Assembly: GCA_910579785.1 (NCBI GenBank)
Contig: CAJTVJ010000005.1
Coordinates: forward strand, 4,385 to 68,384
Direction of reading: 5' to 3'
Source: an uncultured Christensenella sp.
GTDB lineage: Bacteria; Bacillota; Clostridia; Christensenellales; UBA3700
DNA length: 64,000 nt
In this document: in pieces, positions 1,193 through 63,842 of the stretch
Numbering within the stretch: position 1 is the stretch's first letter
How the letters are laid out: each line of letters begins with the position of its first letter
Position numbers and translations under genes: made by a program
Notes under the pieces: model-generated
Seen by the model: the letters and a program-made list of their open reading frames with translations, nothing else
What the model was told of the DNA's origin: nothing
Database searches by the model: none

Positions 1193-1534
1193 GGATGAGA
1201 CTTCTCCGCTCCGTTTCACTTCGGTCGAAGTGACCTGGGCGTTCACCGCGACTTTAAAATACACAATCACTTTACAGAGCAAAGTGATTGCTAAACTAAC
1301 AGTCGGGTTCCGCCCCTACCGACCAAACGAAAATGCACGCTTACGCTACATTTTGTCGGTACTTATTTAACTCGTTGAGACCTCTCCGCGTAGGGCGTAA
1401 GGAGCGGAGCGACGGCATAGCGAGCAAGCAGGTGCGTCTCGTGCGAGCGTCGGTGACGATTATACCCCAAACTCGTAATTATATAGTCATTTCGACTGAA
1501 ACGCAGTGGAATGGAGAAATCTAATCCTTGTGAA
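1193..1534. repeat. Mosaic intergenic repeat cluster A: hairpin unit (CT/AG) + K module + hairpin with L insert (CC) + reverse hairpin (TT/AA)
   Basis: Units: H 1193-1235 GAGACTTCTCCGC...GTCGAAGTGACC; K 1237-1366 (AAAATACACAATCACTT...CATTTTGTCGGTACTT); H-L 1367-1470; reverse H 1485-1534. The same modules recur at 10 other loci in this window. Confidence 0.9.
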
Positions 1535-1723: not shown

Positions 1724-1890
1724 TTGTCCACCTCCATAGCTTAGTTGCGCATTACTTTGATAAGTATTCGCCTATGCTTAGTGTGTACGCAAAAGGAATT
1801 TTTAAATATACAAATGCGGTTTTGCCTTGGAAAATTTAGGATATTCAAAGATTACAAAAATATTCTTAGGCAAATATTCCCTGTCGTCTT

Positions 1891-8976: not shown

Positions 8977-9178
8977 GATTAGATTTCTCCGCTACGCTAA
9001 CGCTACATTTTGTCGTTACTTATTTAATTCGTTGAGATTTCTCCGCTTCACTTCGTTTCGGTCGAAATGACTTAAAGTTTGATTATCTAAAAGCAAAATA
9101 TGGTCACCTCGACCGCAGCGGAGGTCTCAACAAATTGAATAAGTGATTGTGTATTTTAAAGTCGCGGTAAACGTCCAA
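8977..9178. repeat. Mosaic repeat cluster B: partial arm + K tail + hairpin (TT/AA) + linker + reverse hairpin (CC/GG) + reverse truncated K head
   Basis: H 9024-9072 GAGATTTCTCCGCTTCACTTCGTTTCGGTCGAAATGACT; reverse H 9098-9135 GGTCACCTCGACCGCAGCGGAGGTCTC; K fragments 8993-9024 and 9136-9178. Confidence 0.9.
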
Positions 9179-13082: not shown

Positions 13083-13179
13083 ATATGGTCACTTCGAGCG
13101 TAGTCGAGAAATCTTATCGAGTTTATATTTTCACAAGGATGAGACTTCTCCGCTTCACTTCATTTCGGTCAAAGTGACT
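13083..13179. repeat. Mosaic repeat cluster C: reverse hybrid hairpin (TT/AG) + forward hairpin (CT/AG) in the hisS upstream region
   Basis: 13083-13123 GGTCACTTCGAGCGTAGTCGAGAAATCT; 13130-13179 TTCACAAGGATGAGACTTCTCCGCTTCACTTCATTTCGGTCAAAGTGACT. Confidence 0.85.
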
Positions 13180-15102: not shown

Positions 15103-16404
15103 TTATTCATTTATATCTTTTAGATAACTCTCTACTGCTGCTATGCACCGCAAAGAGTATTTATATTTTCGCTGTTTTTTGTCCCTCGGAGGGTCGTTGA
15201 GCGCAGGCAATATGCCGAAATTGGCATTCATTGGCTGATAATCGTCGACAGGCGTCGAGATATGTCTTTGCAACTGTCCTATTATGCAGACGTCCGGCAT
15301 AATCATATCCGACTTTCCGCCAAGCCTCCTCGCAAGATTTATACCCGCTACAAGTCCGCTTGCCGCGCTTTCCATATATCCCTCTACTCCGGTGAGCTGA
15401 CCTGCAAAAAATATATGTTTGTTATCTTTCAATGCCCAAGCGCTGTCAAGCACCTTGGGAGCATTGATAAACGTGTTGGCGTGCATCACGCCGTAACGCA
15501 GAAATTCAGCGTTCTCCAATCCGGGTATCATAGAAAACACCCTCTTTTGCTCTGCAAATTTCAGATTGGTCTGAAATCCTACTATGTTGTACGCATTGCC
15601 TTCTCTCTTTTCTTTGCGAAGCTGTACGACGGCGTAAGGGCGTCCTTCGCGGCGCGGATCGCGTATGCCCACCGGTCTCAACGGTCCGTATCTCATAGTG
15701 TCTATACCCCTCGACGCCATGACCTCTATCGGCATACATCGCTCAAATACTTCAAACTCAAAGTCTTTGAGTTTTGCTCTCTCCGCATTTATAAGCGCGT
15801 CATAAAAAGCCAAATACTCCTCTTTGTCCATCGCGCAGTTGAGATAGTCGTCTCCGCCTTTGCCGTATCTGGCGGCAAAAAACGCCTTGTCATAGTCTAT
15901 GCTCTCGCCGTCAATTATAGGAGCTACCGCGTCGTAAAAGCTGAGGTATTCGCCTCCAAGACTGCTCGCTATCCAATCCGACATACCCTTGGACGTCAAC
16001 GGTCCTGTGGCAATGACGGTGGGTATATCCATATCGACGTCTTCAACATCTTCTCTTACAAGACGAAAGCCGTCAAAGCTATGCAATATCTCTTCGACCT
16101 TTCTGCTGAGTTTCTCTCTGTCTACCGCAAGCGCGCCGCCTGCCGGCACGTCGCATTGATAGGCGCATTTGAGTATTATGCTGTCAAGCCTGGCAAGTTC
16201 GTACTTCAAAAGTCCTGAGGCATTGTCTATGCTCTGCGCTTTGAGCGAATTGGAACACACTAGTTCTGCCAAATGAGTCGTGGAATGACACGGAGTTCTG
16301 CCCACGCCTCTCATCTCATAAAGGTCTACTTGATATCCCCTTTTGAGAAGTTGATACGCGCTTTCGCATCCTGCCAAACCTCCGCCGATCACATTGACTT
16401 TCAT
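15103..16404 (-). CDS. trmFO: Methylenetetrahydrofolate--tRNA-(uracil-5-)-methyltransferase TrmFO
   Basis: 433 aa with FAD motif VIGGGLAGCE. Gid/TrmFO family. Start overlaps the topA stop (ATGA). Confidence 0.95.
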   Translation of the reverse strand: MKVNVIGGGLAGCESAYQLLKRGYQVDLYEMRGVGRTPCHSTTHLAELVCSNSLKAQSIDNASGLLKYELARLDSIILKCAYQCDVPAGGALAVDREKLSRKVEEILHSFDGFRLVREDVEDVDMDIPTVIATGPLTSKGMSDWIASSLGGEYLSFYDAVAPIIDGESIDYDKAFFAARYGKGGDDYLNCAMDKEEYLAFYDALINAERAKLKDFEFEVFERCMPIEVMASRGIDTMRYGPLRPVGIRDPRREGRPYAVVQLRKEKREGNAYNIVGFQTNLKFAEQKRVFSMIPGLENAEFLRYGVMHANTFINAPKVLDSAWALKDNKHIFFAGQLTGVEGYMESAASGLVAGINLARRLGGKSDMIMPDVCIIGQLQRHISTPVDDYQPMNANFGILPALNDPPRDKKQRKYKYSLRCIAAVESYLKDINE

Positions 16405-25893: not shown

Positions 25894-26430
25894 TCAACTC
25901 GATTAGACCTCTCCGCGTAGGGCGTAAGGAGCGAAGCGACGGAATAGCGAGCCAGCGGTAGCGTCTTGGGCGAGCGTCGGTGACGATTATATCCCAAGTA
26001 ATAGAATCTTATATTAAAATACACAATCACTTAGCAAAGCAAACTAATTGATAATCATACAGTCGTACTGACCAAACGAAAAGGCACGCTTACGCTACAT
26101 TTTGTCGGTACTTTTCAATTCGATTAGACCTCTCCGCGTTGGTCGAGGTGACTAGATATGTCAAAACATAAGTCATTTCGACCGTAGTGTAACGAAGCGG
26201 AGAAATCTCAACGAGTTAAAACAGTATGGTCACTTCGAGCGTAGTCGAGAAGTCTCAACGAGTTGAAAAACAAGCGGATGAGATTTCTCCGTTACAGTCG
26301 AAATGACATAACTTACGTAAAGTTGACGGTCGTAGTGGATATGTAACTTCGGTCGAGGTGACCATATTTTACTTATAGCTAACCAAACTTTAAGTCATTT
26401 CAGCGTAGTCGAGAAGTCTCATCCACTTCA
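25894..26430. repeat. Mosaic repeat cluster D (largest): H-L (CC) + linker + K + six further hairpin units or fragments in mixed orientation
   Basis: Units: H-L 25894-25997; K 26016-26114; H CC 26115-26153; reverse H TT 26170-26220; reverse H CT 26225-26267; H TT 26274-26308; 3' arm fragment 26347-26367; reverse hybrid 26392-26430. Confidence 0.9.
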
Positions 26431-32430: not shown

Positions 32431-32475
32431 ATTTGTTGAGATTTCTCCGTTTACTACGTTTAAATCGAGCTGACT
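32431..32475. repeat. Degenerate forward hairpin unit (TT 5' arm) of the mosaic family
   Basis: ATTTGTTGAGATTTCTCCGTTTACTACGTTTAAATCGAGCTGAC. The 3' arm is decayed. Confidence 0.7.
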
Positions 32476-32665: not shown

Positions 32666-32821
32666 TTCACAAGGATGAGATTTCTCCGCTTCGCTCGTAA
32701 GGAGCGTAAGCGACGGCATAGCGAGCCAGCGATAGCGTCTTGGGCGAGCGTCAATGACGATTTACTCCAATACTTGTAAGTAAATATTTAGTCACCTCGA
32801 CTAATATTGAGAGGTCTAAGC
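32666..32821. repeat. Mosaic repeat cluster E: H-L unit (TT 5' arm, AATGAC 3' arm) + reverse hairpin (CC/GG)
   Basis: H-L 32666-32770 TTCACAAGGATGAGATTTCTCCGC...CGTAAGGAGCG...GAGCGTCAATGACGATT; reverse H 32789-32821 AGTCACCTCGACTAATATTGAGAGGTCTAAG. Confidence 0.9.
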
Positions 32822-33774: not shown

Positions 33775-33805
33775 ATAGATAACTCCTTTTATTTTTATCT
33801 AGCAT

Positions 33806-34173
33806 GCTAAAATGTACGCTTGCTCAATATTTTATCGGTACTTTTTTAAATCGATTAGACCTCTCCACTGCGGTCGAGGTGACTAAATTTTTTACTACAA
33901 ACACCAAGATTTGGTCATTTCGACCGAAGTGGAGAAATCTAAACCTTTTATTAACTCGTTGAGACTTCTCCGTTCCACTACGTTTCAGTCGAAGTGACTA
34001 ATCTATGCTTATAGCGCACCACACTTTGGTCACCTCGACCAACGCGGAGAGGTCTAATCATTTTTTTATATTTCACAAGGTTGAGATTTCTCCGCTACGC
34101 TATCGCCTCGGTCGTAAGGAGCGAAAGCGACGGCATAGCGAGGGGCAGATGCGTCTCGTGCGAGCGTCAATGA
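33806..34173. repeat. Mosaic repeat cluster F between smc and ftsY: K tail + five hairpin units in alternating orientation, the last with an L insert
   Basis: Units: K tail 33806-33847; H CC 33848-33884; reverse H TT 33911-33945; H CT 33951-33999; reverse H CC 34026-34059; H-L TT 34071-34173. Confidence 0.9.
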
Positions 34174-34212
34174 CGATTACATCTTATTCTCACAATTTCA
34201 CACGTAATTACC

Positions 34213-39692: not shown

Positions 39693-39846
39693 AAAGCACC
39701 TCGTTGAATTGGTCGATAGATACATTATAACATAGATAATTTGTGTTGTAAACGCTATTTGTCGACGTATTTTTTTGCAATATGTCGCTTTTACGACGCG
39801 ATTTCCAATTAGTTGGCTAGAAAATATGCAGTCATTGACTTTTTAA

Positions 39847-40026
39847 AAGGTTTAGATTTCTTAACTCGTTGAGACCTCTCCGCGTTGGTCGAGGTGACCA
39901 TATATTGCTTATAGCTAATCAAACTTTAAGTCATTTCGACCGAAACAAAGTTAAGCGGAGAAATCTTATCCTATTATATTTTCTACTCGTTGAGACCTCT
40001 CCGCGTTGGTCGAGGTGACCACATAT
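39847..40026. repeat. Mosaic repeat cluster G: forward CC hairpin, conserved linker, reverse TT hairpin, forward CC hairpin
   Basis: Units: 39861-39900 TTAACTCGTTGAGACCTCTCCGCGTTGGTCGAGGTGACCA; linker 39901-39927; 39928-39971 AAGTCATTTCGACCGAAACAAAGTTAAGCGGAGAAATCTTATCC; 39983-40026, whose 33-nt core CTCGTTGAGA...GGTCGAGGTGACC is identical to the first unit. Confidence 0.92.
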
Positions 40027-40049
40027 TACCTACAAATAGCTAAAAAATA

Positions 40050-40076
40050 GAAAAGTACGGCATTGCCGTACTTTTC
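40050..40076 (-). terminator. Rho-independent terminator downstream of the DUF885 gene
   Basis: 12-bp perfect stem GAAAAGTACGGC / GCCGTACTTTTC with loop ATT. On the minus strand it is followed by TATTTTTTAGC. Confidence 0.85.
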
Positions 40077-40110
40077 TCCCTCGATTGCAATAAAATAATC
40101 TGCTAAGATT

Positions 40111-41961
40111 TTATTTATTTGACTTTATATACTTCTCCGTCAACTCATAAGTCCTTGTCACCGCAGGACCTGCGCCCTCTGAAAGCAAAGTCTTGTTGAA
40201 TTCAACTTCGCTGTACTTATCGCCCAGCGCACCTTTCGCCTTGTCGTGTACGTCAGTCAATACCGTCACGCCGTAGCCGTATGCTATATACACAGCAGGA
40301 TTCTCCCTCAACACTGCAAACATATCGCTAAAATCTTCGCCCTCGGACAATATGTCTTCGGTGTATCCAAAATAATTATAAAGCAAATCCATCAACGCAT
40401 TGTCGGCATATGAAAAGACAAGATAATTGGTCTTAAACTTGCAATACTGTTTTAAAGCCAAACTGTCGGTATGCTCCGCAGTATAATTCAAAACCGCTAT
40501 CGACGCATACATAGCCCATCCTTCGGCAAACGTCGTGCAGTCATTTATAAGGCTGAATAAGTCAGCTCCGTTTTCTTTGGCATTGACGTACGCATACAGG
40601 TGTCCGGGATATCCTTCGTGCGCAATCGTGTCAAACAACGTCGCCGGTCTGTCGCCCAAGCTGTGCGAATTGATAGTAATACTCTCGCCCGTCCCCGATT
40701 GGTCGGCAGGCGACTTTAAATAATACGCCAAGCTGTTGGAGATACTTGCCACGGTATCGTCCATATATTTAAAGCTGATTTCGGGTTGGGTCGTCAATCT
40801 CGGCACTATGCTGTCTGCCGCCGTCTGCATATAAGCTATGATATCCTCAGGCTCGCTCAGTCCAAGCGGAGCTTTTTTCTCCTCGACGTAATCATAAAAC
40901 TCTTTGTATACCTGCGGATTCGTCTCTTCCAAAGCTTTTATCTCGGCAAGTACTGCCTGCGCGTTCTTCTGAGCATTGACTACGGCAAGTCTTATCTGCT
41001 CGTATGCCCCTTCAATATTCGCATTCTTTATGCCCGTGATTGAGCTAAAACGCCACTTATAGTACGCCTCGCCTATCTCTCCGTATGCAGTGAGATAGCT
41101 GACGGCAGCATCGGGATATACGCCTTTGTAATCTTCAAGTCCGTCGTGCAATACCTTGACTCCAACCATAAAGCAGTCTCTTATCGCCGTCACGTACTTG
41201 CTGATATAATTATTTTTTTGAACGACGTTTAAAAAGTGTGCGCCGTTTATCTTATTGCGAATAAGCTTATAAAGATAATAATCGTCGCCTTGACTTAATA
41301 TCTCAGCGAGATAATTCTGCATATTCGTCACAGTGACGTCCCATAGCGAATAGCCTTTTAGGTCTCTGTCGTCGACGTAATCGAGATATGAAGGAAAGGT
41401 GTCTTTCGTAGACTTTGTCAATGCAAGCAAATTGTCAACGTCGTCTTTATCTCTAAAAGCATAATTGTCGACGGTGTCGGCAAAAGAAGCTACGTATCCG
41501 CCCTCAGAATTTATTATAGAGCTGCCTATCAAATTGAAATCAAGTACGTACGGAGAGCCGTAATAACTCAAATACTGATCAATGACGCTTTCCATATATC
41601 TATAAGATACGGCGTCGCTGCCCTTCAATCGCGAAAGCTTAATCTTGTTTAATTCACTGTCACAAAGCTTGAAAAGGTCATACAGCTCGTCGGCGTCCTG
41701 CTGACTCAACGCCGAATAGCTTCGCCAAGAGTATTCTCCATACTTCTCGTATCCGTAAGAGCCTTCGGGATCTATTGCAAACACGTTCCAATCTTCAATG
41801 CTGTTGCCAAGAAAGAGCAATGAAAGCTCATTGGACAAAGCCTGTACTTTGGCAGAATAATATGAATCCAAAATACTGCATGCTGTGAACGTCGACGCCA
41901 AACACGTCAACAATAATACTAATGCTACTACGACTAAAGTCTTTTTGATATTTTTCTTCAT
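40111..41961 (-). CDS. DUF885-family lipoprotein (putative metallopeptidase-like)
   Basis: 616 aa with lipoprotein signal LLLTCLASTFTAC and the DUF885 hallmark HEGYPGHLY. Confidence 0.75.
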   Translation of the reverse strand: MKKNIKKTLVVVALVLLLTCLASTFTACSILDSYYSAKVQALSNELSLLFLGNSIEDWNVFAIDPEGSYGYEKYGEYSWRSYSALSQQDADELYDLFKLCDSELNKIKLSRLKGSDAVSYRYMESVIDQYLSYYGSPYVLDFNLIGSSIINSEGGYVASFADTVDNYAFRDKDDVDNLLALTKSTKDTFPSYLDYVDDRDLKGYSLWDVTVTNMQNYLAEILSQGDDYYLYKLIRNKINGAHFLNVVQKNNYISKYVTAIRDCFMVGVKVLHDGLEDYKGVYPDAAVSYLTAYGEIGEAYYKWRFSSITGIKNANIEGAYEQIRLAVVNAQKNAQAVLAEIKALEETNPQVYKEFYDYVEEKKAPLGLSEPEDIIAYMQTAADSIVPRLTTQPEISFKYMDDTVASISNSLAYYLKSPADQSGTGESITINSHSLGDRPATLFDTIAHEGYPGHLYAYVNAKENGADLFSLINDCTTFAEGWAMYASIAVLNYTAEHTDSLALKQYCKFKTNYLVFSYADNALMDLLYNYFGYTEDILSEGEDFSDMFAVLRENPAVYIAYGYGVTVLTDVHDKAKGALGDKYSEVEFNKTLLSEGAGPAVTRTYELTEKYIKSNK

Positions 41962-43582: not shown

Positions 43583-43636
43583 AAGGATGAGATTTCTCCG
43601 CTCCGTTACACTTCGGTCGTAAGGAGAGGTCTTATC
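43583..43636. repeat. Chimeric single unit of the mosaic family
   Basis: AAGGATGAGATTTCTCCGCTCCGTTACACTTCGGTCGTAAGGAGAGGTCTTATC. It joins a TT 5' arm and loop to the first nucleotides of the L module and then to a reverse CC arm end. Confidence 0.8.
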
Positions 43637-47390: not shown

Positions 47391-47465
47391 ATTTCTATTC
47401 TCCTTATATTATTATTATAATATTTTTAATAATTATTTATTTTATCAATTATATCTTATTTCACA

Positions 47466-47927
47466 AAGTACCGACAAAATGTAGCGTAAGCGTGCATTTT
47501 CGTTTGGACGGCATTAGCGGAACCCGACTGCTAATTAAGCAATCACTTTGCTTTGCTAAGTGATTGTGTATTTTAATATAAGATTCCATTACTTGGGATA
47601 TAATCGTCACCGACGCTCGCCCAAGACGCTACCGCTGGCTCGCTATTCCGTCGCTTCGCTCCTTACGACCGCAGTGAAGAGGTCTAATCATTTTAATTTT
47701 TTAACTTGATGAGATTTCTCCGCTCCACTTCGTTTCGGTCGAAATGACTAAACTATGCTAATAGCACACACCAAACTTTGGTCACATCGACCGCAGTTGA
47801 GAGGTCTATTCGAGTTGTATTATACGGATGAGACTTCTCCGTTCCACTGCGTTTCAGTCGAAGTGACTTAGTTTTACACTTTACAAACTATATGCAGTCA
47901 ACTCGCTAGTCGCGGAAAGGTCTAATC
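47466..47927. repeat. Mosaic repeat cluster I: reverse K + reverse L-H (CC) + four more hairpin units in alternating orientation
   Basis: Units: reverse K 47466-47574; reverse L-H 47593-47689; H TT 47701-47749; reverse H CC (one mismatch) 47778-47817; H CT 47823-47869; degenerate reverse H 47894-47927, abutting the PfkB stop codon. Confidence 0.9.
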
Positions 47928-48932: not shown

Positions 48933-51900
48933 TCACATATCAACTATTATCGCGCCCATGCCCAAGACTATATTCTCATTCTTAGTCTCAAACTCTTTGA
49001 CTCTGTCTATTGGCACTATCGTGCCGCCGCTTGAAAGCACCTGTCCCAACGTGACGGTCACCACTATTCCTCCGCCGAAGTTATGTTCGATAATCTTCAT
49101 ACCCAATATTTCGTTCTTGACAGCGTCGGTGTTGCTTAGATCAAGTCCGCCCACGCCCTCGGGTCTGCTAGTTCTTACAAGACGGGAGAGTATCGACCTC
49201 TGTCTGTCGCTCATTGCATTATATAGTACAGATACCTGTTGGGATGTGATATCCATATACAGCGTCAAGTCCATTCTCTCCGGCAATATCGTCATCTTAA
49301 CGCCTGCCGCAACCGCAGTATCCATATCAAGCGTGATAAGGAAATACTCCTCGTCGCCCAACGCGCCGAGCTTGTCGCGCATGTCTTCAAAAGTGCCGTC
49401 GCCGTTTGCTCTCGTCGGAATAAGCGCAGTATGTTTGAGCTTCAAAGCATCAGGATTGCCTGCGGCGTTCTTATCAAGTCCCAAAGGCTCTAAGAGCCTG
49501 TCTGTCTCAATCATAGAGGCTATGTTCCACCCGCCTATCGCACCTTTTATATGCGCGCCTGCATTGTAGGACAGCAAAAGATTGCTTGCCGCCGCCTGCG
49601 CAGAATCGACGGTAAAGGTAACGCCTGCCCTCTCGTATCCGCTTGGTGGCGCGTACGCCGATATATCGAGACTTTCGTGCAGCGCTTCCAACGTCTCCTT
49701 GACGTCCTGCGGAGTCAACTTCTCACCTTCGTCCGCGGTATTTATCTTGTTGGCAGCTATCTCGTATATGCTGTCCAAAAGCAAATATCCGCCGCCTGTT
49801 ACGCCTTCTACAGTGTCGTCGGCGACAAAATCGACGTGCATATTGTTGGTGAGCGCACTCATTGTCGACCTCACGTTGTCCGAACACTCTTTGTTGGCGC
49901 CCGTCAAGTTTTGCACTCCGCCTTCTTTCTCATTGAGTTTGGATATAAACGACTCTATCGCACTCACTTCCTCTGCGTTCAAATCGTTGATACTGATATT
50001 TGCGCAAAGAGCGTCGGGTATATACATCTTCTTGACGTCTATATCGACGACAAGCGAAATCTTCTGCGGCAACAACTGCGCATACTTTTGGCTTTCACCG
50101 TTTAAAGTCACTCCGCTTTGATATACGATTATCATACTATCGTATCTGACGTACATAGCAGTCATTACTGCGTCCTTATATCCGTCGGCTTCTATCTTGA
50201 CGCTCTTCTCCAACATCAAAAGCAACTCTTCGCCTACTATCGTCGGGCGCAGCTGCTCTACCGTCATAGCTCTCTTCTCACTTGACGTCAGCTTGACTCC
50301 GTCGATATTTGTCGCATAGTCCTTTGCATACTCGCCAAGCACCGTCAATATAGCAACTCCGTCTTCAAGCTCTTTTGCAAGCGCGTATCTGTCGTTGATT
50401 TGAGATATAGACGCGCTTGAATCAGCCGCCCTATTGCCGACGGCAAAATCTAACGTCACGTCGTCTTTATATCTATACGTCGTCGGCATATTGTTGACCT
50501 TGCACAGTCCGTTGCGGAAATTTATCTCGTCGATAAAATTATCGGGGTTGATCAATGCTTCGCCTGCCTTGGCGCCGTAAGCAGAATTGAGAGAGATTTG
50601 ATATATCGTCTCATTGAAGATAAATCCGCCGTCGTTCAAGAACGTCACTGTGAATATATCGTTGTGTATCTTGGCTTTAAATTCGTTGAGATTGCCTTCC
50701 AACTTAGCAAGAATGCTCTCCAACGAAAGCGGCTCTTCCTGCTCTTGCGGCGGTTGGGTCTCGCCGCCGTTGTTTGACGTATTGGTTTTTATTCTCTCTA
50801 TAAACGTTATGAGAAGATGCAGATCTTGCTGCTCCCCGCCGTCCTCGACGTACTCCACGGAATTTATATCCATGGCATACACGTTCATATTGCTGCGTGT
50901 GCCGTCGCTCAAAACCGCGCCCAGCTCTATTGTCAAATTGACGTAAAAGTCGTCAGGCATAAGCCCTTTGGCATTCTCGTCTTCGACGTTGCCCTTGCCT
51001 TTGAGCGTCAAATTCATTATATTTTCGTCGTTGCCGACGTACGCCATCTTCTGATCGCGCATAAATGATATATCGCTCACCACGCTGACCTGCTTGCTGA
51101 GCAGATATGCAAATTCTTCCGTCGTGAAATGCGGCTTGAACTTACCCTCTATTTCGCTCTTCAACTGCAAATCGCTCTTGCCGTCCATGACGGTGACGTT
51201 GTTGAGCGAAGTCAAATCGCCCGGTCTCACTTTGTCTGGGCTGAACTCCTCGCCGCCTATGCTGCTGAATCCGTCAAGCAGTTGGTCTTTTTCGTCAAAA
51301 CCTTTGAGCTGTTGAGCAAAGCTGTCGCTGATAAAATACTTGTCGTGTAATTCTTTGTATATAAAGTTGTCGAGATTTGCGGCGGCAGTAAAGCCTTGCT
51401 GTCCCGTCGTCGAATAATCGTATCCGTAAAGCTTACGCAACAAATACCTTATCTCGTCAGCCGCAAATACGTGAGCGTTTTCTTCTTTCGCCGCGACCAT
51501 ATCGCTCTTGGCAATGACGTTGAAAAGATTGTCTATCTGCAAGCCTCCGTTGACGAACTTATATTCTATCCCCTTTATCTTGCTCATATATGCTTTGACT
51601 TGCGCGTCTATCTTGCTCTCTATCTCTGCGACGCCGGCTTGCTTGCCCGTCAATTTGCGCACCATTGAGAAAAAGTCGTCCATACTCTCATCGTTCATTC
51701 CGTCAATAACTACTTTGACGCTGCTCTGCTCGCTTGCGTTTATCATCTTCTCGGTGTCTATGAAAACCGTGATATATACTGTATCAGGCAAAAGATTGGA
51801 GTATTTGCTCAAATCCTCGGACTGCGACGGCTGAGTAGGCTCTCCCTCTTCCGCGGCAACCGCAGCTTTGTCATAAAGCTTTGCCGCGATATGAAGTCTC

Positions 51901-54302
51901 AGCTCTCCCTCTGAGCTTGTCGCGCCCAATACTGCCGCGGTTTTGAGCGCAGAGCTAAGTTCGTTGACGTCTATATTGTCGTTCATAAGATATGCGAACT
52001 CGCCTTCCGACATAAGCGGATATATCTTATCCATACTCCTGCCGTCACTCGCCAGCGCAGACTTGTCTATCGAACTGCCGAAAGTATCTTTAAGTCCCAT
52101 TACGCTGTCAAGCAACTTGCCGTCGCCGCTGTCGACTATCTTGCCCTCTTGCAGATAATACTTGCTCTCCAACTCGTCTATAAAGCCGTCTGCATTTTGG
52201 CTCTTATTCTTCTCTTGGTCCGCAAGTTCAAAGGTATGGACTTGTTTCATTATGGTATACAGGCTCTCGGGAGCAATGGTTTTCTCCTCGCTTTCGTTAA
52301 GCGCGCCGCTGCCGCACACGACTTCAAACAAGTTGGGCAGATATGCGCACTCCTCGGAAAATACTATTTCGCAGCCTATCTTCTCCTGTATCTGCGCGAT
52401 ACCTTTCTTTATGCTCTCGTCTATCTTAGCGCACAGCTTGCCGTAGTCAAGCGCAGACACGTCCATGCCGAACTTGCCTGCAAGCGCCGTCAACGTCTGC
52501 AAATGCTGTTGGGAATTTTCTATACCGACCTTGTTTATCTCCACGCTTGACGGAGTGTTAAGCTCTGCGACTACGCAGATATTTGCCGATACGAATATCT
52601 CTTGCGGAACGAGCTGGGATATCAGCGAAGCCATCACGTCGCTGCCGTCAAATCCCAACATACCTGCGACGTCGACCTTTATATCGACAGACAGCATTGC
52701 GCCCTTTGCCCGATAGCTCATTCCCACTATCTCGGCTTTTATCTCGCCGAGCATATCTTCGCCGCCGACGTAATCCGAAAGCATTGCCGCAAGAGCCGAA
52801 TACTCCGTGCGCACTTTGAGTCTTTGCGCGTCGTATGCTCCGTCATATTTCATACTTGTCAGCTGCACGGAGCTTATCACCTCGTCGCCGCTTGCGAAGT
52901 TGATGATATCGTTGATGGTATTTTCCGGCGTGATCTTGCCGCTTGAATTGTCAAGGCAGTATTTACCGCTGAGCTCTTTTATAAATTCCAAAGTCTTTGC
53001 GTGCTTTATCTCGGCGGTAGGAATATCGATACCCAACGACTGAGCATTGGGAAGCTTGACGTCTCTAATCATAGTCAAAAACGCCTGCTCGCTTACGTTG
53101 ACATCAAGTAAACCCATAAGCGTCTCTATCGGATGAATGTCCACGCTGCCCGTCGGCACAAATGCGAGAGGCACTTTCTTTTGAGCTTGACTTATGACCT
53201 CGACGACCTTGGAGTTGACCTGCACCAACAAAGTGCTGAGCGAAGTCGTATTACCAGTCTTTTTGAGTATTACGTCAGCTATCCTGACTATCTTGTCTAT
53301 CTTATCCTCGCCCATTCTATTGATAGATACCTGCACCGCCTTAGTTGGATCGTTGGGATATACTATCGCCGTTGCATAGAGCTGTTTGGGCAAAATCTGT
53401 TTTATTATCGGAGGCAGATTATTTTGCTCAATAATGCCCGACAGCATATCCTTTACCATAATAGAAAGCGTTATCTTAAAGCTTGTCTGCGTTGCGTCCA
53501 ATCCGTTGCCGCCTATGATTATCTGCTTGATTTGCAATACGTCTTTAAGAGGTTTGCCTATCTTGGCTTCTAAGTCTTTGAGCATCTCAAAAGACCCGGA
53601 CAGCGAGGACAACGCCTCGTTGATAGCCGAGGCTATCTGTCTGTCGGTTATCTCCAAAATATTGCTTTGTCCGTCATAATCTTCAAGAGAAGTAAAGTCA
53701 AACTCTATCTCTTGCAATAGTTGGTCAAGTTGAGGATTGCCCGTCAAAGAGCCGTCGTTTCCGCTGTCGGGAGCGACTTCATTCGGAAAATCTTCTTCAT
53801 TTGGCATTTCGTCGGAATATAATTGCTCGCCGTCGGCATTCGTATATACGTACTGCAAGTCATAGCCGTCTACGCCCACTGTCGCAACTTCTCCGCTCTG
53901 TCCGCTGCCGTCAGACGTCGACGACATGATTGTGGATATTATCTTGGAGATGGAAATATCGCTGTCTTCCGCCAAGTACAGCTTGCGCTTTAAATTGCTG
54001 TAAAATCCTTTAAGATCCTCTTCTGTGTATCCCTTTGTGACTATCTTGCTCTCGTCGGTGTCGCCGACCCCGTTGAAAAGCGTAAACAATTCTTTAAATT
54101 CTACGTTGGCTTCTTCGCCGATCTGCGTCCACCATATATCCGCCGCAGTGTTGTATGCAAAAGCAGTCGCGCCCACGATTGAGCCGACAAAAATCAAGAC
54201 GAATACCAGCGCAAAGATCTTGCCCAGCATCTTATTGCGATTGCCGCGTTTGATCGCCTTTTGATTTTTTTCTATATCGATTTTGTATATTACTTTCGCC
54301 AT
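48933..54302 (-). CDS. Giant (1789 aa) N-terminally membrane-anchored protein with degenerate internal repeats, function unknown
   Basis: A single uninterrupted ORF with TM helix MLGKIFALVFVLIFVGSIVGATAFAY near the N-terminus. The rest is acidic and repeat-structured, with no enzymatic motif I recognise. Confidence 0.85.
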   Translation of the reverse strand: MAKVIYKIDIEKNQKAIKRGNRNKMLGKIFALVFVLIFVGSIVGATAFAYNTAADIWWTQIGEEANVEFKELFTLFNGVGDTDESKIVTKGYTEEDLKGFYSNLKRKLYLAEDSDISISKIISTIMSSTSDGSGQSGEVATVGVDGYDLQYVYTNADGEQLYSDEMPNEEDFPNEVAPDSGNDGSLTGNPQLDQLLQEIEFDFTSLEDYDGQSNILEITDRQIASAINEALSSLSGSFEMLKDLEAKIGKPLKDVLQIKQIIIGGNGLDATQTSFKITLSIMVKDMLSGIIEQNNLPPIIKQILPKQLYATAIVYPNDPTKAVQVSINRMGEDKIDKIVRIADVILKKTGNTTSLSTLLVQVNSKVVEVISQAQKKVPLAFVPTGSVDIHPIETLMGLLDVNVSEQAFLTMIRDVKLPNAQSLGIDIPTAEIKHAKTLEFIKELSGKYCLDNSSGKITPENTINDIINFASGDEVISSVQLTSMKYDGAYDAQRLKVRTEYSALAAMLSDYVGGEDMLGEIKAEIVGMSYRAKGAMLSVDIKVDVAGMLGFDGSDVMASLISQLVPQEIFVSANICVVAELNTPSSVEINKVGIENSQQHLQTLTALAGKFGMDVSALDYGKLCAKIDESIKKGIAQIQEKIGCEIVFSEECAYLPNLFEVVCGSGALNESEEKTIAPESLYTIMKQVHTFELADQEKNKSQNADGFIDELESKYYLQEGKIVDSGDGKLLDSVMGLKDTFGSSIDKSALASDGRSMDKIYPLMSEGEFAYLMNDNIDVNELSSALKTAAVLGATSSEGELRLHIAAKLYDKAAVAAEEGEPTQPSQSEDLSKYSNLLPDTVYITVFIDTEKMINASEQSSVKVVIDGMNDESMDDFFSMVRKLTGKQAGVAEIESKIDAQVKAYMSKIKGIEYKFVNGGLQIDNLFNVIAKSDMVAAKEENAHVFAADEIRYLLRKLYGYDYSTTGQQGFTAAANLDNFIYKELHDKYFISDSFAQQLKGFDEKDQLLDGFSSIGGEEFSPDKVRPGDLTSLNNVTVMDGKSDLQLKSEIEGKFKPHFTTEEFAYLLSKQVSVVSDISFMRDQKMAYVGNDENIMNLTLKGKGNVEDENAKGLMPDDFYVNLTIELGAVLSDGTRSNMNVYAMDINSVEYVEDGGEQQDLHLLITFIERIKTNTSNNGGETQPPQEQEEPLSLESILAKLEGNLNEFKAKIHNDIFTVTFLNDGGFIFNETIYQISLNSAYGAKAGEALINPDNFIDEINFRNGLCKVNNMPTTYRYKDDVTLDFAVGNRAADSSASISQINDRYALAKELEDGVAILTVLGEYAKDYATNIDGVKLTSSEKRAMTVEQLRPTIVGEELLLMLEKSVKIEADGYKDAVMTAMYVRYDSMIIVYQSGVTLNGESQKYAQLLPQKISLVVDIDVKKMYIPDALCANISINDLNAEEVSAIESFISKLNEKEGGVQNLTGANKECSDNVRSTMSALTNNMHVDFVADDTVEGVTGGGYLLLDSIYEIAANKINTADEGEKLTPQDVKETLEALHESLDISAYAPPSGYERAGVTFTVDSAQAAASNLLLSYNAGAHIKGAIGGWNIASMIETDRLLEPLGLDKNAAGNPDALKLKHTALIPTRANGDGTFEDMRDKLGALGDEEYFLITLDMDTAVAAGVKMTILPERMDLTLYMDITSQQVSVLYNAMSDRQRSILSRLVRTSRPEGVGGLDLSNTDAVKNEILGMKIIEHNFGGGIVVTVTLGQVLSSGGTIVPIDRVKEFETKNENIVLGMGAIIVDM

Positions 54303-56786: not shown

Positions 56787-56925
56787 CTGTTTAGACCTCT
56801 CCGCATAGGGCGTAAGGAGCGTAGCGACGGAATAGCGTGCCAGCATGTGCGTCTCGACTTGGGCGAGCGTCGGTACTTATTTAACGTTGAGATTTCTCCA
56901 CGCGCTACGCTTGGTCGAAATGACA
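56787..56925. repeat. Mosaic repeat cluster J: H-L (CC) fused through GTCGGT to a K tail, followed by a forward TT hairpin
   Basis: 56787-56874 TTTAGACCTCTCCGCATAGGGCGTAAGGAGCG...GGGCGAGCGTCGGT; 56875-56925 ACTTATTTAACGTTGAGATTTCTCCACGCGCTACGCTTGGTCGAAATGACA. Confidence 0.9.
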
Positions 56926-63353: not shown

Positions 63354-63842
63354 TAAGTCATTTAGATCAAGCGAAGCGCGTGGAGAAATCTTATACGCTT
63401 ATTTATTTAACTCGATTAGACTTCTCCACTACGGTCGAGGTGATTATTCTTAGTAGTTCATAATCAAATATGGTCATATCGAGCGTATTCGAGATATCTC
63501 ATCCGTTTATCTTCTTAACTCGTTGAGACCTCTCCGCTGTGGGCGTAAGGAGCGATAGCGACGGCATAGCGAGCAAGCAGGTGCGTCTTGTGCGAGCGTC
63601 GGTGACATTTCTCTCCCAAATTTGTAAATATATGGTCATTTCGACCGAAGTGCAACGTAGCGGAGAAATCTTAACCTTTTAAATTTTTAACTTGTTGAGA
63701 TTTCTCGACTACGCTCGAAATGACACAGCTATGTATTAAGTTACGATTGCTAAGGATATGAAGCATTTAGTTTGGCAAGTTGTAAGCAATAATTGCTCAT
63801 TTCGACCGAAGTGTAACGGAGCGGAGAAATCTAATCGAATTG
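63354..63842. repeat. Mosaic repeat cluster K: seven hairpin units, including the only TA/TA subtype copy and one H-L unit
   Basis: Units: reverse H TT (degenerate) 63354-63396; hybrid H CT/GG 63397-63445; reverse H TA/TA 63468-63505 (GGTCATATCGAGCGTATTCGAGATATCTC); H-L CC 63514-63619; reverse H TT 63629-63676; H TT 63686-63725; reverse H TT 63793-63842. Confidence 0.9.

Follow-up and report, generated by a model that had tools for sequence, protein, structure and literature searches.

The 64,000-nucleotide stretch of an uncultured Christensenella sp. that was analysed here as a whole (the window) carries 39 units of a short hairpin repeat at 11 intergenic loci, and three of the units make up the target region at positions 39847-40026. 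These units are divergent members of the family formed by the Neisseria Transformation Sequence (NTS), the Ssn-related motifs (SRMs) and the nuclease Ssn, and not an unknown kind of element; probably, they are copies of the SRM hairpins devoid of an open reading frame (ORF), to which a mechanism based on hairpins in single-stranded DNA (ssDNA) would apply. Since none of them matches the published SRM search pattern, the assignment rests on the architecture of the unit and on its association with nuclease genes in other organisms.

The NTS, CGTCATTCCCGCGMAVGCGGGAATCYRG, was described as an oriented extension of the dRS3 repeat, and the SRMs are the generalisation of it proposed by the same authors (Chenal et al., Nat Commun 2025;16:2388, PMC11893778). 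These motifs flank ssnA, a 94-aa single-domain GIY-YIG gene (CDD cd10448), in the arrangement NTS-ssnA-NTS; at least one SRM lies near 71% of the ssnA homologs, and 42% have SRMs on both sides. SsnA binds and cuts ssDNA only, and in particular only the NTS (GTCA) strand, a few nucleotides upstream of the hairpin, acting on neither double-stranded DNA nor RNA; in N. meningitidis, its effect on transforming DNA that carries the NTS is an about five-fold drop in integration. Sequence-divergent pairs of motif and enzyme are expected by the authors, who raise an architecture like that of an insertion sequence (IS) and the analogy with REP and its REP-associated tyrosine transposase (RAYT) only as hypotheses (PMC11893778).

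The window units carry the SRM tag (C)GTCAT/GTCWY upstream and the tail (A)TC downstream, their inverted repeat falls in the range of 20-50 nt and contains three covarying pairs, and in other organisms units of the same type flank ssnA-type genes in inverted orientation. The sequence-only reading had recognised no named family in them; they belong with the NTS/SRM hairpins of Ssn, relatives of dRS3/NIME, and hence largely with a family already described (PMC11893778). The paper on Ssn was reached through the sibling variant GTCATTCCCGC, taken from the flanks of GIY-YIG genes; the literature search gave no match for the window-type sequence itself and no link of GIY-YIG with REPIN, RAYT or repeats under those keywords.

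GIY-YIG genes between inverted units in other organisms

In a locus of Patescibacteria (L112) and in one of Lewinellaceae (L074), an ORF of about 100 aa is located directly between copies of the motif and codes for the GIY-YIG catalytic domain alone (Pfam PF01541, E = 5e-15 and 7e-18, respectively); a GIY-YIG ORF occupies the same position in L066. The family placement of these ORFs was made with the Pfam model, cd10448 being the CDD class of ssnA in the published work. The GIY-YIG proteins gave only a weak match to NCBIfam, with a group I intron endonuclease model and below its cut-off, and only weak matches to PDB sequences, namely the UPF0213 structures 1ywl and 1zg2 (E ~1e-3 to 1e-4).

A survey from the protein side comprised 80 metagenomic loci encoding relatives, 11 of which carry the window-type unit; in about half of these 11 a (-) unit is located 8-50 bp upstream of the ATG, and in some of them a (+) unit also lies at or over the stop codon. 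Window-type units flank ssnA-type genes in L112, L142, L170, L174, L192, L194 and L209-L212. Among the loci with flanks read, about 32 of 40 are bracketed on at least one side by a broader design, GTCAT-stem...stem'-ATCTC upstream and GAGAT-stem...stem'-ATGAC downstream, with stems such as TTGCGA.../...GCAA, TTCCCG.../...GGGAA, CCTGAAC... and TTTCGAC..., the last of which is the TT type of the window; a homolog from gut Bacteroidota (P0056) shows the same bracketing with window-type TT units. The full element, as it occurs elsewhere, is an inverted pair of units around a ~95-aa single-domain GIY-YIG gene, in the order GTCA..ATCTC - ATG..ssnA..stop - GAGAT..TGAC.

Identity between the proteins that have window-type units at their flanks and those that have the exact published NTS consensus is 45-67%; in L173, NTS copies at 1460-1486 (+) and 1841-1867 (-) surround the ORF. 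The geometry is shared, the GTCA strand being sense upstream of the gene and antisense downstream of it, and the head-to-head doublets of the window match the NTS-ssnA-NTS geometry with the gene missing. A profile search of a set of 5.8 billion proteins gave at least 7988 relatives; among the 120 listed, the named ones are all from Bacteroidota and none is attributable to the species of the window.

The motif is not lineage-specific. A scan of one genome per species for GAGANNTCTCC-N{3,25}-GGTCGANNTGAC returned at least 120 stretches, and the hosts among the matches listed belong to more than 15 phyla, including Bacteroidota, Chloroflexota, Planctomycetota, Verrucomicrobiota, Patescibacteria, Riflebacteria, Pseudomonadota, Actinomycetota and Cloacimonadota, together with many Clostridia (Ca. 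Coproplasma, Christensenellales and metagenome-assembled genomes (MAGs) from rabbit gut). Among the matches listed for GAGA-NN-TCTCC...GGTCGA-N'N'-TGAC, the dinucleotides NN and N'N' of the two arms are exact complements in 145 of 156, and most of the non-complementary ones are artefacts of overlapping adjacent units. The subtypes found across phyla (named NN/N'N') are TT/AA, TC/GA, TG/CA, TA/TA and CC/GG; outside GAGA...TGAC the flanks are not conserved, and the loop measures 4-6 nt or contains an extra hairpin.

Some of the loci with a GIY-YIG gene also contain tandem repeats. At the ssnA locus of gut Bacteroidota (L209 3857-4635 and L210 3833-4742), half-sites of the GTCA arm are repeated with a period of ~23 nt, e.g., GTCATTACGAGCGAACGCACAACT, and their copy number differs between the two strains (4 versus 5 upstream and 2 versus 4 downstream). 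Positions 13-900 of L074, from the Lewinellaceae MAG, form a tandem array of ~160-bp repeats, each holding one TG/CA unit plus partial units, and the GIY-YIG gene (956-1261) lies immediately downstream of it.

Stem architecture, strand and excess over chance

Repeat finding recovers the hairpin family across the whole window, and the 14 matches to the exact core GAGANNTCTC-N{4,24}-TCGANNTGAC compare with 0.00 expected after 100 dinucleotide-preserving shuffles, as befits a real and oriented repeat family. The catalogue (Table 1), in which up to two mismatches per arm were allowed and all eleven intergenic mosaics were read, comprises 31 short units, whose loops measure 6 or 16 nt, 7 "long" variants, in which ~65-75 nt are inserted between the arms, and 1 orphan 5' arm. 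The recount gives the same total as the sequence-only reading, whose unit positions and subtypes are all present and whose four hybrid units are the same four recovered here. The arm dinucleotides are complementary in 25 short and all 7 long units (32 matched units versus 4 hybrids), and two further units are degenerate copies.

The alignment of 28 short units (A5) was scored for the stem A-N-N-T-C / G-A-N'-N'-T plus one inner pair. Paired cells amount to 95.8% versus 83.9 +/- 1.5 in shuffles, a value reached by 0 of 500 shuffles, and cells changed on both sides are 25 versus 8.2 +/- 4. In particular, column pair 15-44 is CG in 13 units, UA in 13 and UG in 1, and column pair 16-43 is UA in 19, CG in 6, AU in 1 and UG in 1; a third covarying pair, column 21-38 (CG 20, GC 5), closes an internal loop, and pairing drops to 29-50% once the 3' partners are slid by 1-3 columns. 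In the long variants the dinucleotides are complementary across ~75 nt, CC occurring with ...GGTGAC in 5/5 and TT with ...AATGAC in 2/2. The covariation is real and more extensive than first noted, and the stem subtypes are truly compensatory; of the stem originally drawn, the A-N-N-T-C part stands, and the inner CC:GG pairing gives way to a 2x2 internal loop followed by the covarying pair 21-38, which fits better. This loop is symmetric and reads TC/TC on the strand used by the earlier reader and GA/GA on the complementary strand.

On the GTCA strand, which is the reverse complement of that reader's orientation, the unit is GTCA(T/C)-N'N'-TC-[GA]-C...loop...G-[GA]-GA-NN-TCTC. Its parts are a 5' tag GTCA, a 5-bp stem whose two middle pairs are variable if paired, the 2x2 G-A/A-G loop, the covarying closing pair, a loop of 6 nt, 16 nt or, in the long form, ~75 nt, and a 3' tail ATCTC; every unit reads GTCA[T/C]...ATCT[C/A/T] on this strand, with little or no variation in the tag columns of A5. 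By established nucleic-acid thermodynamics, a hairpin gains stability from tandem G-A mismatches and not from T-C/T-C ones, for which reason the GTCA strand is expected to be the better hairpin. Folded as DNA (ViennaRNA DNA parameters), the GTCA strand is never less stable than its complement, being more stable in 22 of 28 units and tied in 6 (Wilcoxon p = 4e-5); the mean gain is just 0.4 kcal/mol, so that the strand asymmetry gives weak support.

Arrays, companion modules and differences between strains

Adjacent units are opposite in orientation in 23 of 28 pairs (p = 9e-4), in accordance with the alternation described earlier. The spacers fall into two classes, 19-26 nt at head-to-head junctions (...ATCTC-spacer-GAGAT...) and mostly 26-32 nt at tail-to-tail junctions (...TGAC-spacer-GTCA...), and these classes, together with the alternating orientation, define the arrays as strings of inverted doublets with a period of ~120 bp. 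This organisation is BIME/REP-like, as had been suggested, and the analogy is apt for how the element works. The mosaics total ~3.2 kb, ~5% of the window, in agreement with the previous estimate. The window has a G+C content of 43.5%, and its minus strand carries nearly all of the genes, which have housekeeping functions (SMC, FtsY, Ffh, TopA, RumA, a two-component pair, GalT and L19); the units are located between them, as already claimed, none lying inside a convincing gene, and their orientation relative to these genes is ~50:50 (22 to 17).

The comparison of eight homologous strain loci (L001-L008), whose flanks are 97-99.7% identical, revealed different unit contents at 5/5 repeat loci. 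At the target locus L001 and L004 are shorter by exactly 121 bp, the length of one array period; between FtsY and SMC the spacer measures 358 to 534 bp, depending on the strain, and contains different unit sets; at the RumA locus L003 has about five more units, and the fused composite that the window has there resembles the product of a deletion joining two neighbouring units. Every strain difference seen is accounted for by resident copies that recombine or slip, and none of them demonstrates transposition.

The arrays are a probable cause of breaks in short-read assemblies. In several MAGs of the same species (L217, L218), contigs end at or next to the mosaic at ~1200-1900 of the window. In L005 (GCA_036837275.1, 1-7500), just to the right of window position 41961, the DUF885 gene has a different neighbour, a block resembling a mobile element or prophage that includes two large serine recombinases, proteins with the Mtd_N domain (as in the targets of diversity-generating retroelements), a holin and a CAP12/TIR-domain protein.

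Other short modules accompany the units. A second hairpin module, TACCGACCAAACGAAAATGCACGCTTACGCTACATTTTGTCGGTA, always adjoins SRM-type units and is without the GTCA tag; a third one, with the perfect 10-bp inverted repeat CAATCACTTT...AAAGTGATTG, shares the mosaics, in a manner that resembles the Neisseria NIMEs, where dRS3/NTS alternate with other modules. The long variants have a conserved insert of ~65-75 nt, GG[G/T]CGTAAGGAGCG.AGCGACGG.ATAGCGAGC...GCGTCT.G.GCGAGCGTC, across which the arm dinucleotides are complementary, and strain L004 keeps one long unit intact where other strains have units spliced in. Among the genes, a 1789-aa ORF at 48933-54302 (-) has no Pfam match at E <= 0.001 and is conserved in all the strain loci that reach it.

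Table 1. Repeat units and companion modules of the window; subtypes are given as 5' arm/3' arm dinucleotides.
Feature	Position	Strand	Remarks
Short unit CC/GG, GAGACCTCTCC-GCGTTG-GTCGAGGTGAC	39871-39898	+	NTS-like GTCA strand is minus; invariant in 9 strains
Short unit TT/AA, 16-nt loop	39930-39967	-	Head-to-head doublet with 39992-40019, 24-nt spacer; absent in L001, L004 (121-bp indel)
Short unit CC/GG	39992-40019	+	Direct copy of 39871-39898, 121 bp apart; 121-bp indel in L001/L004
Short unit CT/AG	1197-1234	+	
Long variant, CC 5' arm	1373-1457	+	~65-nt insert, then ...GTCGGTGAC
Short unit TT/AA	1486-1523	-	
Orphan 5' arm TAGATTTCTCC	8980-8990	+	Without 3' arm
Short unit TT/AA	9034-9071	+	
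Short unit CC/GG	9103-9128	-	2-nt deletion in 5' arm
Hybrid unit TT/AG	13088-13115	-	G:T on GAGA strand
Short unit CT/AG	13141-13178	+	
Long variant CC...GGTGAC	25902-25986	+	
Short unit CC/GG	26125-26152	+	
Short unit TT/AA	26172-26209	-	
Short unit CT/AG	26229-26256	-	Inner pair G-C type
Short unit TT/AA	26280-26307	+	
Hybrid unit CT/AA	26394-26420	-	
Degenerate unit TT/GC	32438-32474	+	
Long variant TT...AATGAC	32677-32760	+	
Short unit CC/GG	32791-32818	-	
Short unit CC/GG	33856-33883	+	Varies among strains
Short unit TT/AA	33914-33941	-	
Short unit CT/AG	33961-33998	+	
Short unit CC/GG	34029-34056	-	
Long variant TT...AATGAC	34083-34175	+	
Fused composite	43589-43636	+	5' part of TT unit plus 3' end of inverted CC unit; about 5 full units in L003
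Long variant CC	47604-47688	-	
Short unit TT/AA	47711-47748	+	
Hybrid unit CC/TG	47781-47808	-	
Short unit CT/AG	47830-47867	+	
Degenerate unit CC/GT	47897-47924	-	
Long variant CC	56793-56880	+	
Short unit TT/AA	56889-56924	+	
Short unit TT/AA	63357-63392	-	Degenerate 3' arm
Hybrid unit CT/GG	63417-63444	+	
Short unit TA/TA	63473-63500	-	Sole copy of TA/TA subtype
Long variant CC	63524-63608	+	
Short unit TT/AA	63635-63672	-	
Short unit TT/AA	63697-63724	+	Inner pair G-C type
Short unit TT/AA	63796-63833	-	
Second hairpin module	1317-1362, 26066-26110, 33796-33840, 47462-47510		33796-33840 diverged; 47462-47510 reverse; partial copy at 8998-9020
Third module	1262-1300, 26020-26055, 47535-47575		Partial copy at 9140-9160

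Mechanism, rival explanations and known systems

According to the favoured mechanism, the hairpins would form when the host DNA is single-stranded, e.g., during replication, repair or DNA uptake, and, should the genome encode a cognate Ssn, would serve as its targets; whole doublets would be gained and lost from the arrays as units recombine or slip, possibly with Ssn-dependent mobilisation as well, and the covariation of NN and N'N' would reflect the need for a paired stem and not RNA folding. The question of RNA or DNA had been left open by the sequence-only reading; DNA appears to be the best answer, because the characterised Ssn is specific for ssDNA of one strand and does not bind RNA (PMC11893778), and because the units occur in both orientations relative to almost uniformly minus-strand genes.

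Several results weigh against the assignment to the Ssn family. The published SRM search sequence, HGTCWYN(0-2)YYVSBRHN(0-5)WNVSBRGN(0-2)RNCYNB, is matched by 0 of the 39 window units, owing to the A of the G-A internal loop, which falls at a "B" position where A is forbidden; the sole match in the window (16260-16290) is unrelated to the units. Among the 120 motif-bearing loci listed, just 4 have a GIY-YIG gene within 8 kb, as detected with an iterated hidden Markov model (HMM), and in three of them it lies within ~200 bp of the motif; such a low number is what ORF-less copies would give, but most sites do not show the association. A search by tblastn and the iterated HMM, which took in every ORF of 50 aa or more, detected no GIY-YIG/ssnA gene in the window, in the eight strain loci or in ~20 kb of added flanking sequence of this species (~84 kb of genome). 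In addition, the strain comparisons gave no clean pair of an empty site and a filled site with target duplication, and the hairpins are weak as DNA (~-1 to -7 kcal/mol), with a small strand asymmetry.

A more ambitious form of the same explanation regards SRM-ssnA as a self-mobilising element and a new IS class, in which the GIY-YIG ssDNA nuclease would cut outside each terminal hairpin, on opposite strands; the doublets of the window would be non-autonomous REPIN-like derivatives mobilised in trans, and the subtypes TT, CC, CT and TA separate replicating lineages, possibly matched to different Ssn paralogs. This proposal is tentative and rather doubtful: near-identical motifs across phyla, the geometry of the doublets, the gain and loss of whole doublets and the contig breaks at arrays fit it, without demonstrating transposition.

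A variant of the main explanation is that of orphan or relic arrays, i.e., hairpins derived from an Ssn system in a genome without ssnA, which would persist and change only by homologous recombination, replication slippage and gene conversion between copies; any side effects would be of the generic REP kind at most, for example protein binding or a stabilised transcript 3' end. The finding of no ssnA in the ~84 kb agrees with it, even though this extent is ~3% of the genome, and among genomes with more than 200 SRMs 81% have ssnA and 19% are without a homolog (PMC11893778). Recombination or slippage would also give indels like those seen among strains, where a whole period between direct copies is involved or neighbouring units are fused, and hybrid, degenerate and orphan arms do exist; however, complementarity is strongly kept (32 to 4), and the invariance of the GTCA and ATCTC tags and of the GA/GA loop points to ongoing selection or recent amplification and not to decay. 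The orphan-array variant is unlikely.

It is very improbable that the units are a structured RNA (such as a stabiliser or terminator of transcripts, a processing site or a small ribozyme) with a stem under selection at the RNA level. Compensatory covariation speaks for it, as do the two of the three G:T/A:C hybrids that read as G:U on the GAGA strand; in addition, extra hairpins of variable length are tolerated in the loop, as happens in many RNAs, and the units, located between co-oriented genes, are probably transcribed. Yet their orientation relative to the genes is ~50:50 (22 to 17) and alternates, so that in half of them the transcript would have the opposite strand's sequence, and the partner found as a flanking gene is a DNA nuclease that does not bind RNA (PMC11893778). 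Moreover, no Rfam family matches the element at gathering or permissive thresholds, with 0 matches at the gathering score over the whole window and no relevant match at E <= 10 over 39700-40130. A hammerhead- or C/D-box-like string in the window (GATGAGA...CGAAAT GAC) was considered as a ribozyme or k-turn, and the likeness fails across phyla, where CUGAUGA, GAAA and the C-box-like bases are not conserved. Beside the target, a sub-threshold Rfam match to the Streptococcus sRNA SpF25 at 40044-40130 (-) (32.7 bits versus a gathering score of 48, E = 0.0013) owes its score to AAAAGTACGGCAATGCCGTACTTTT, a GC-rich terminator hairpin that lies downstream of the DUF885 gene, and is most likely just an intrinsic terminator.

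The partner suggested by the sequence-only reading, a RAYT (an IS200/IS605-like Y1 transposase) mobilising a REP/BIME-REPIN system, is hardly credible: short imperfect palindromes, REPIN-like inverted doublets with fixed spacers and BIME-like mosaics are indeed present, but the tag of the units is GTCA and neither GTAG nor CGTC, one of which, next to the palindrome, defines each of the two REP superfamilies (PMC3733652), the gene between inverted units elsewhere encodes a GIY-YIG nuclease, and neither a Y1 (RAYT/IS200) nor a DDE transposase is among the 25 commonest of 73 Pfam families assigned to the nearest ORFs of 90 motif copies, where nothing recurs beyond two response regulators. The same survey and the strain comparisons, without target duplication or clean empty site, bear on a miniature inverted-repeat element of a DDE transposon, whose terminal inverted repeats the arms resemble (GAGAnnTC-TCC versus GTCAnnTCGACC). 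A CRISPR-like repeat, of which the size and the GTC...AAC ends are reminiscent, is ruled out by the alternating orientation and the fixed spacers of ~23 or 30 nt.

Taken as divergent members of the NTS/SRM-Ssn family, the window units add a cross-phylum stem architecture overlooked by the published SRM pattern, the coexistence of several compensatory stem subtypes within one genome and the turnover of doublet arrays between strains of a gut Clostridia species. Since the pattern misses the widespread window type, the published SRM counts and ssnA-SRM association rates are probably underestimates. The units represent a natural mutagenesis series, in which two to three stem pairs are free if paired, whereas the G-A/A-G loop, the 5' tag GTCA and the 3' tail ATCTC are fixed, and which predicts what Ssn would read; the prediction is useful for the programmable ssDNA cutting proposed for the Ssn enzyme family. 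Arrays that occupy ~5% of the region, differ among strains that are nearly identical and fall where assemblies break matter also for MAG assembly and strain typing.

The NTS/SRMs and the window units are both oriented hairpins of 28-40 nt with a 5' GTCA(T/C) tag and an ATC tail; both are intergenic, clustered, possibly reaching copy numbers in the hundreds and found across phyla, and both bracket a ~95-aa single-domain GIY-YIG gene as inverted pairs, the window type doing so in other organisms. They differ in the stem, which in the NTS is a continuous GC-rich palindrome of ~8 bp (ATTCCCGC/GCGGGAAT) and in the window type consists of the 5-bp A-N-N-T-C, the G-A/A-G loop and one closing pair, in the several compensatory subtypes co-resident in the window genome, and in the host, a Gram-positive Clostridia MAG in which no ssnA has been seen so far (~84 kb). 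The dRS3/NIMEs of Neisseria likewise consist of hairpin repeats that alternate with other short modules as intergenic mosaics tied to recombination and variability of the flanking DNA; in contrast, the dRS3 core ATTCCC-N8-GGGAAT is absent from the window units, the phylum is different, and the other modules of the window are the TACCGAC...GTCGGTA and CAATCACTTT...AAAGTGATTG hairpins. As for the REP/BIME/REPIN-RAYT systems of E. coli and Pseudomonas, the enzyme associated with the window type is a GIY-YIG and not an HUH/Y1 nuclease, the tag is GTCA and not GTAG or CGTC, and no covalent tyrosine chemistry is expected; the two have in common short imperfect palindromes, alternating orientation and inverted doublets as the likely unit of amplification, and REP-RAYT and SRM-Ssn share a small gene for a nuclease specific for ssDNA hairpins that is itself flanked by the repeats, being probably alike in the recognition of the hairpin in ssDNA.

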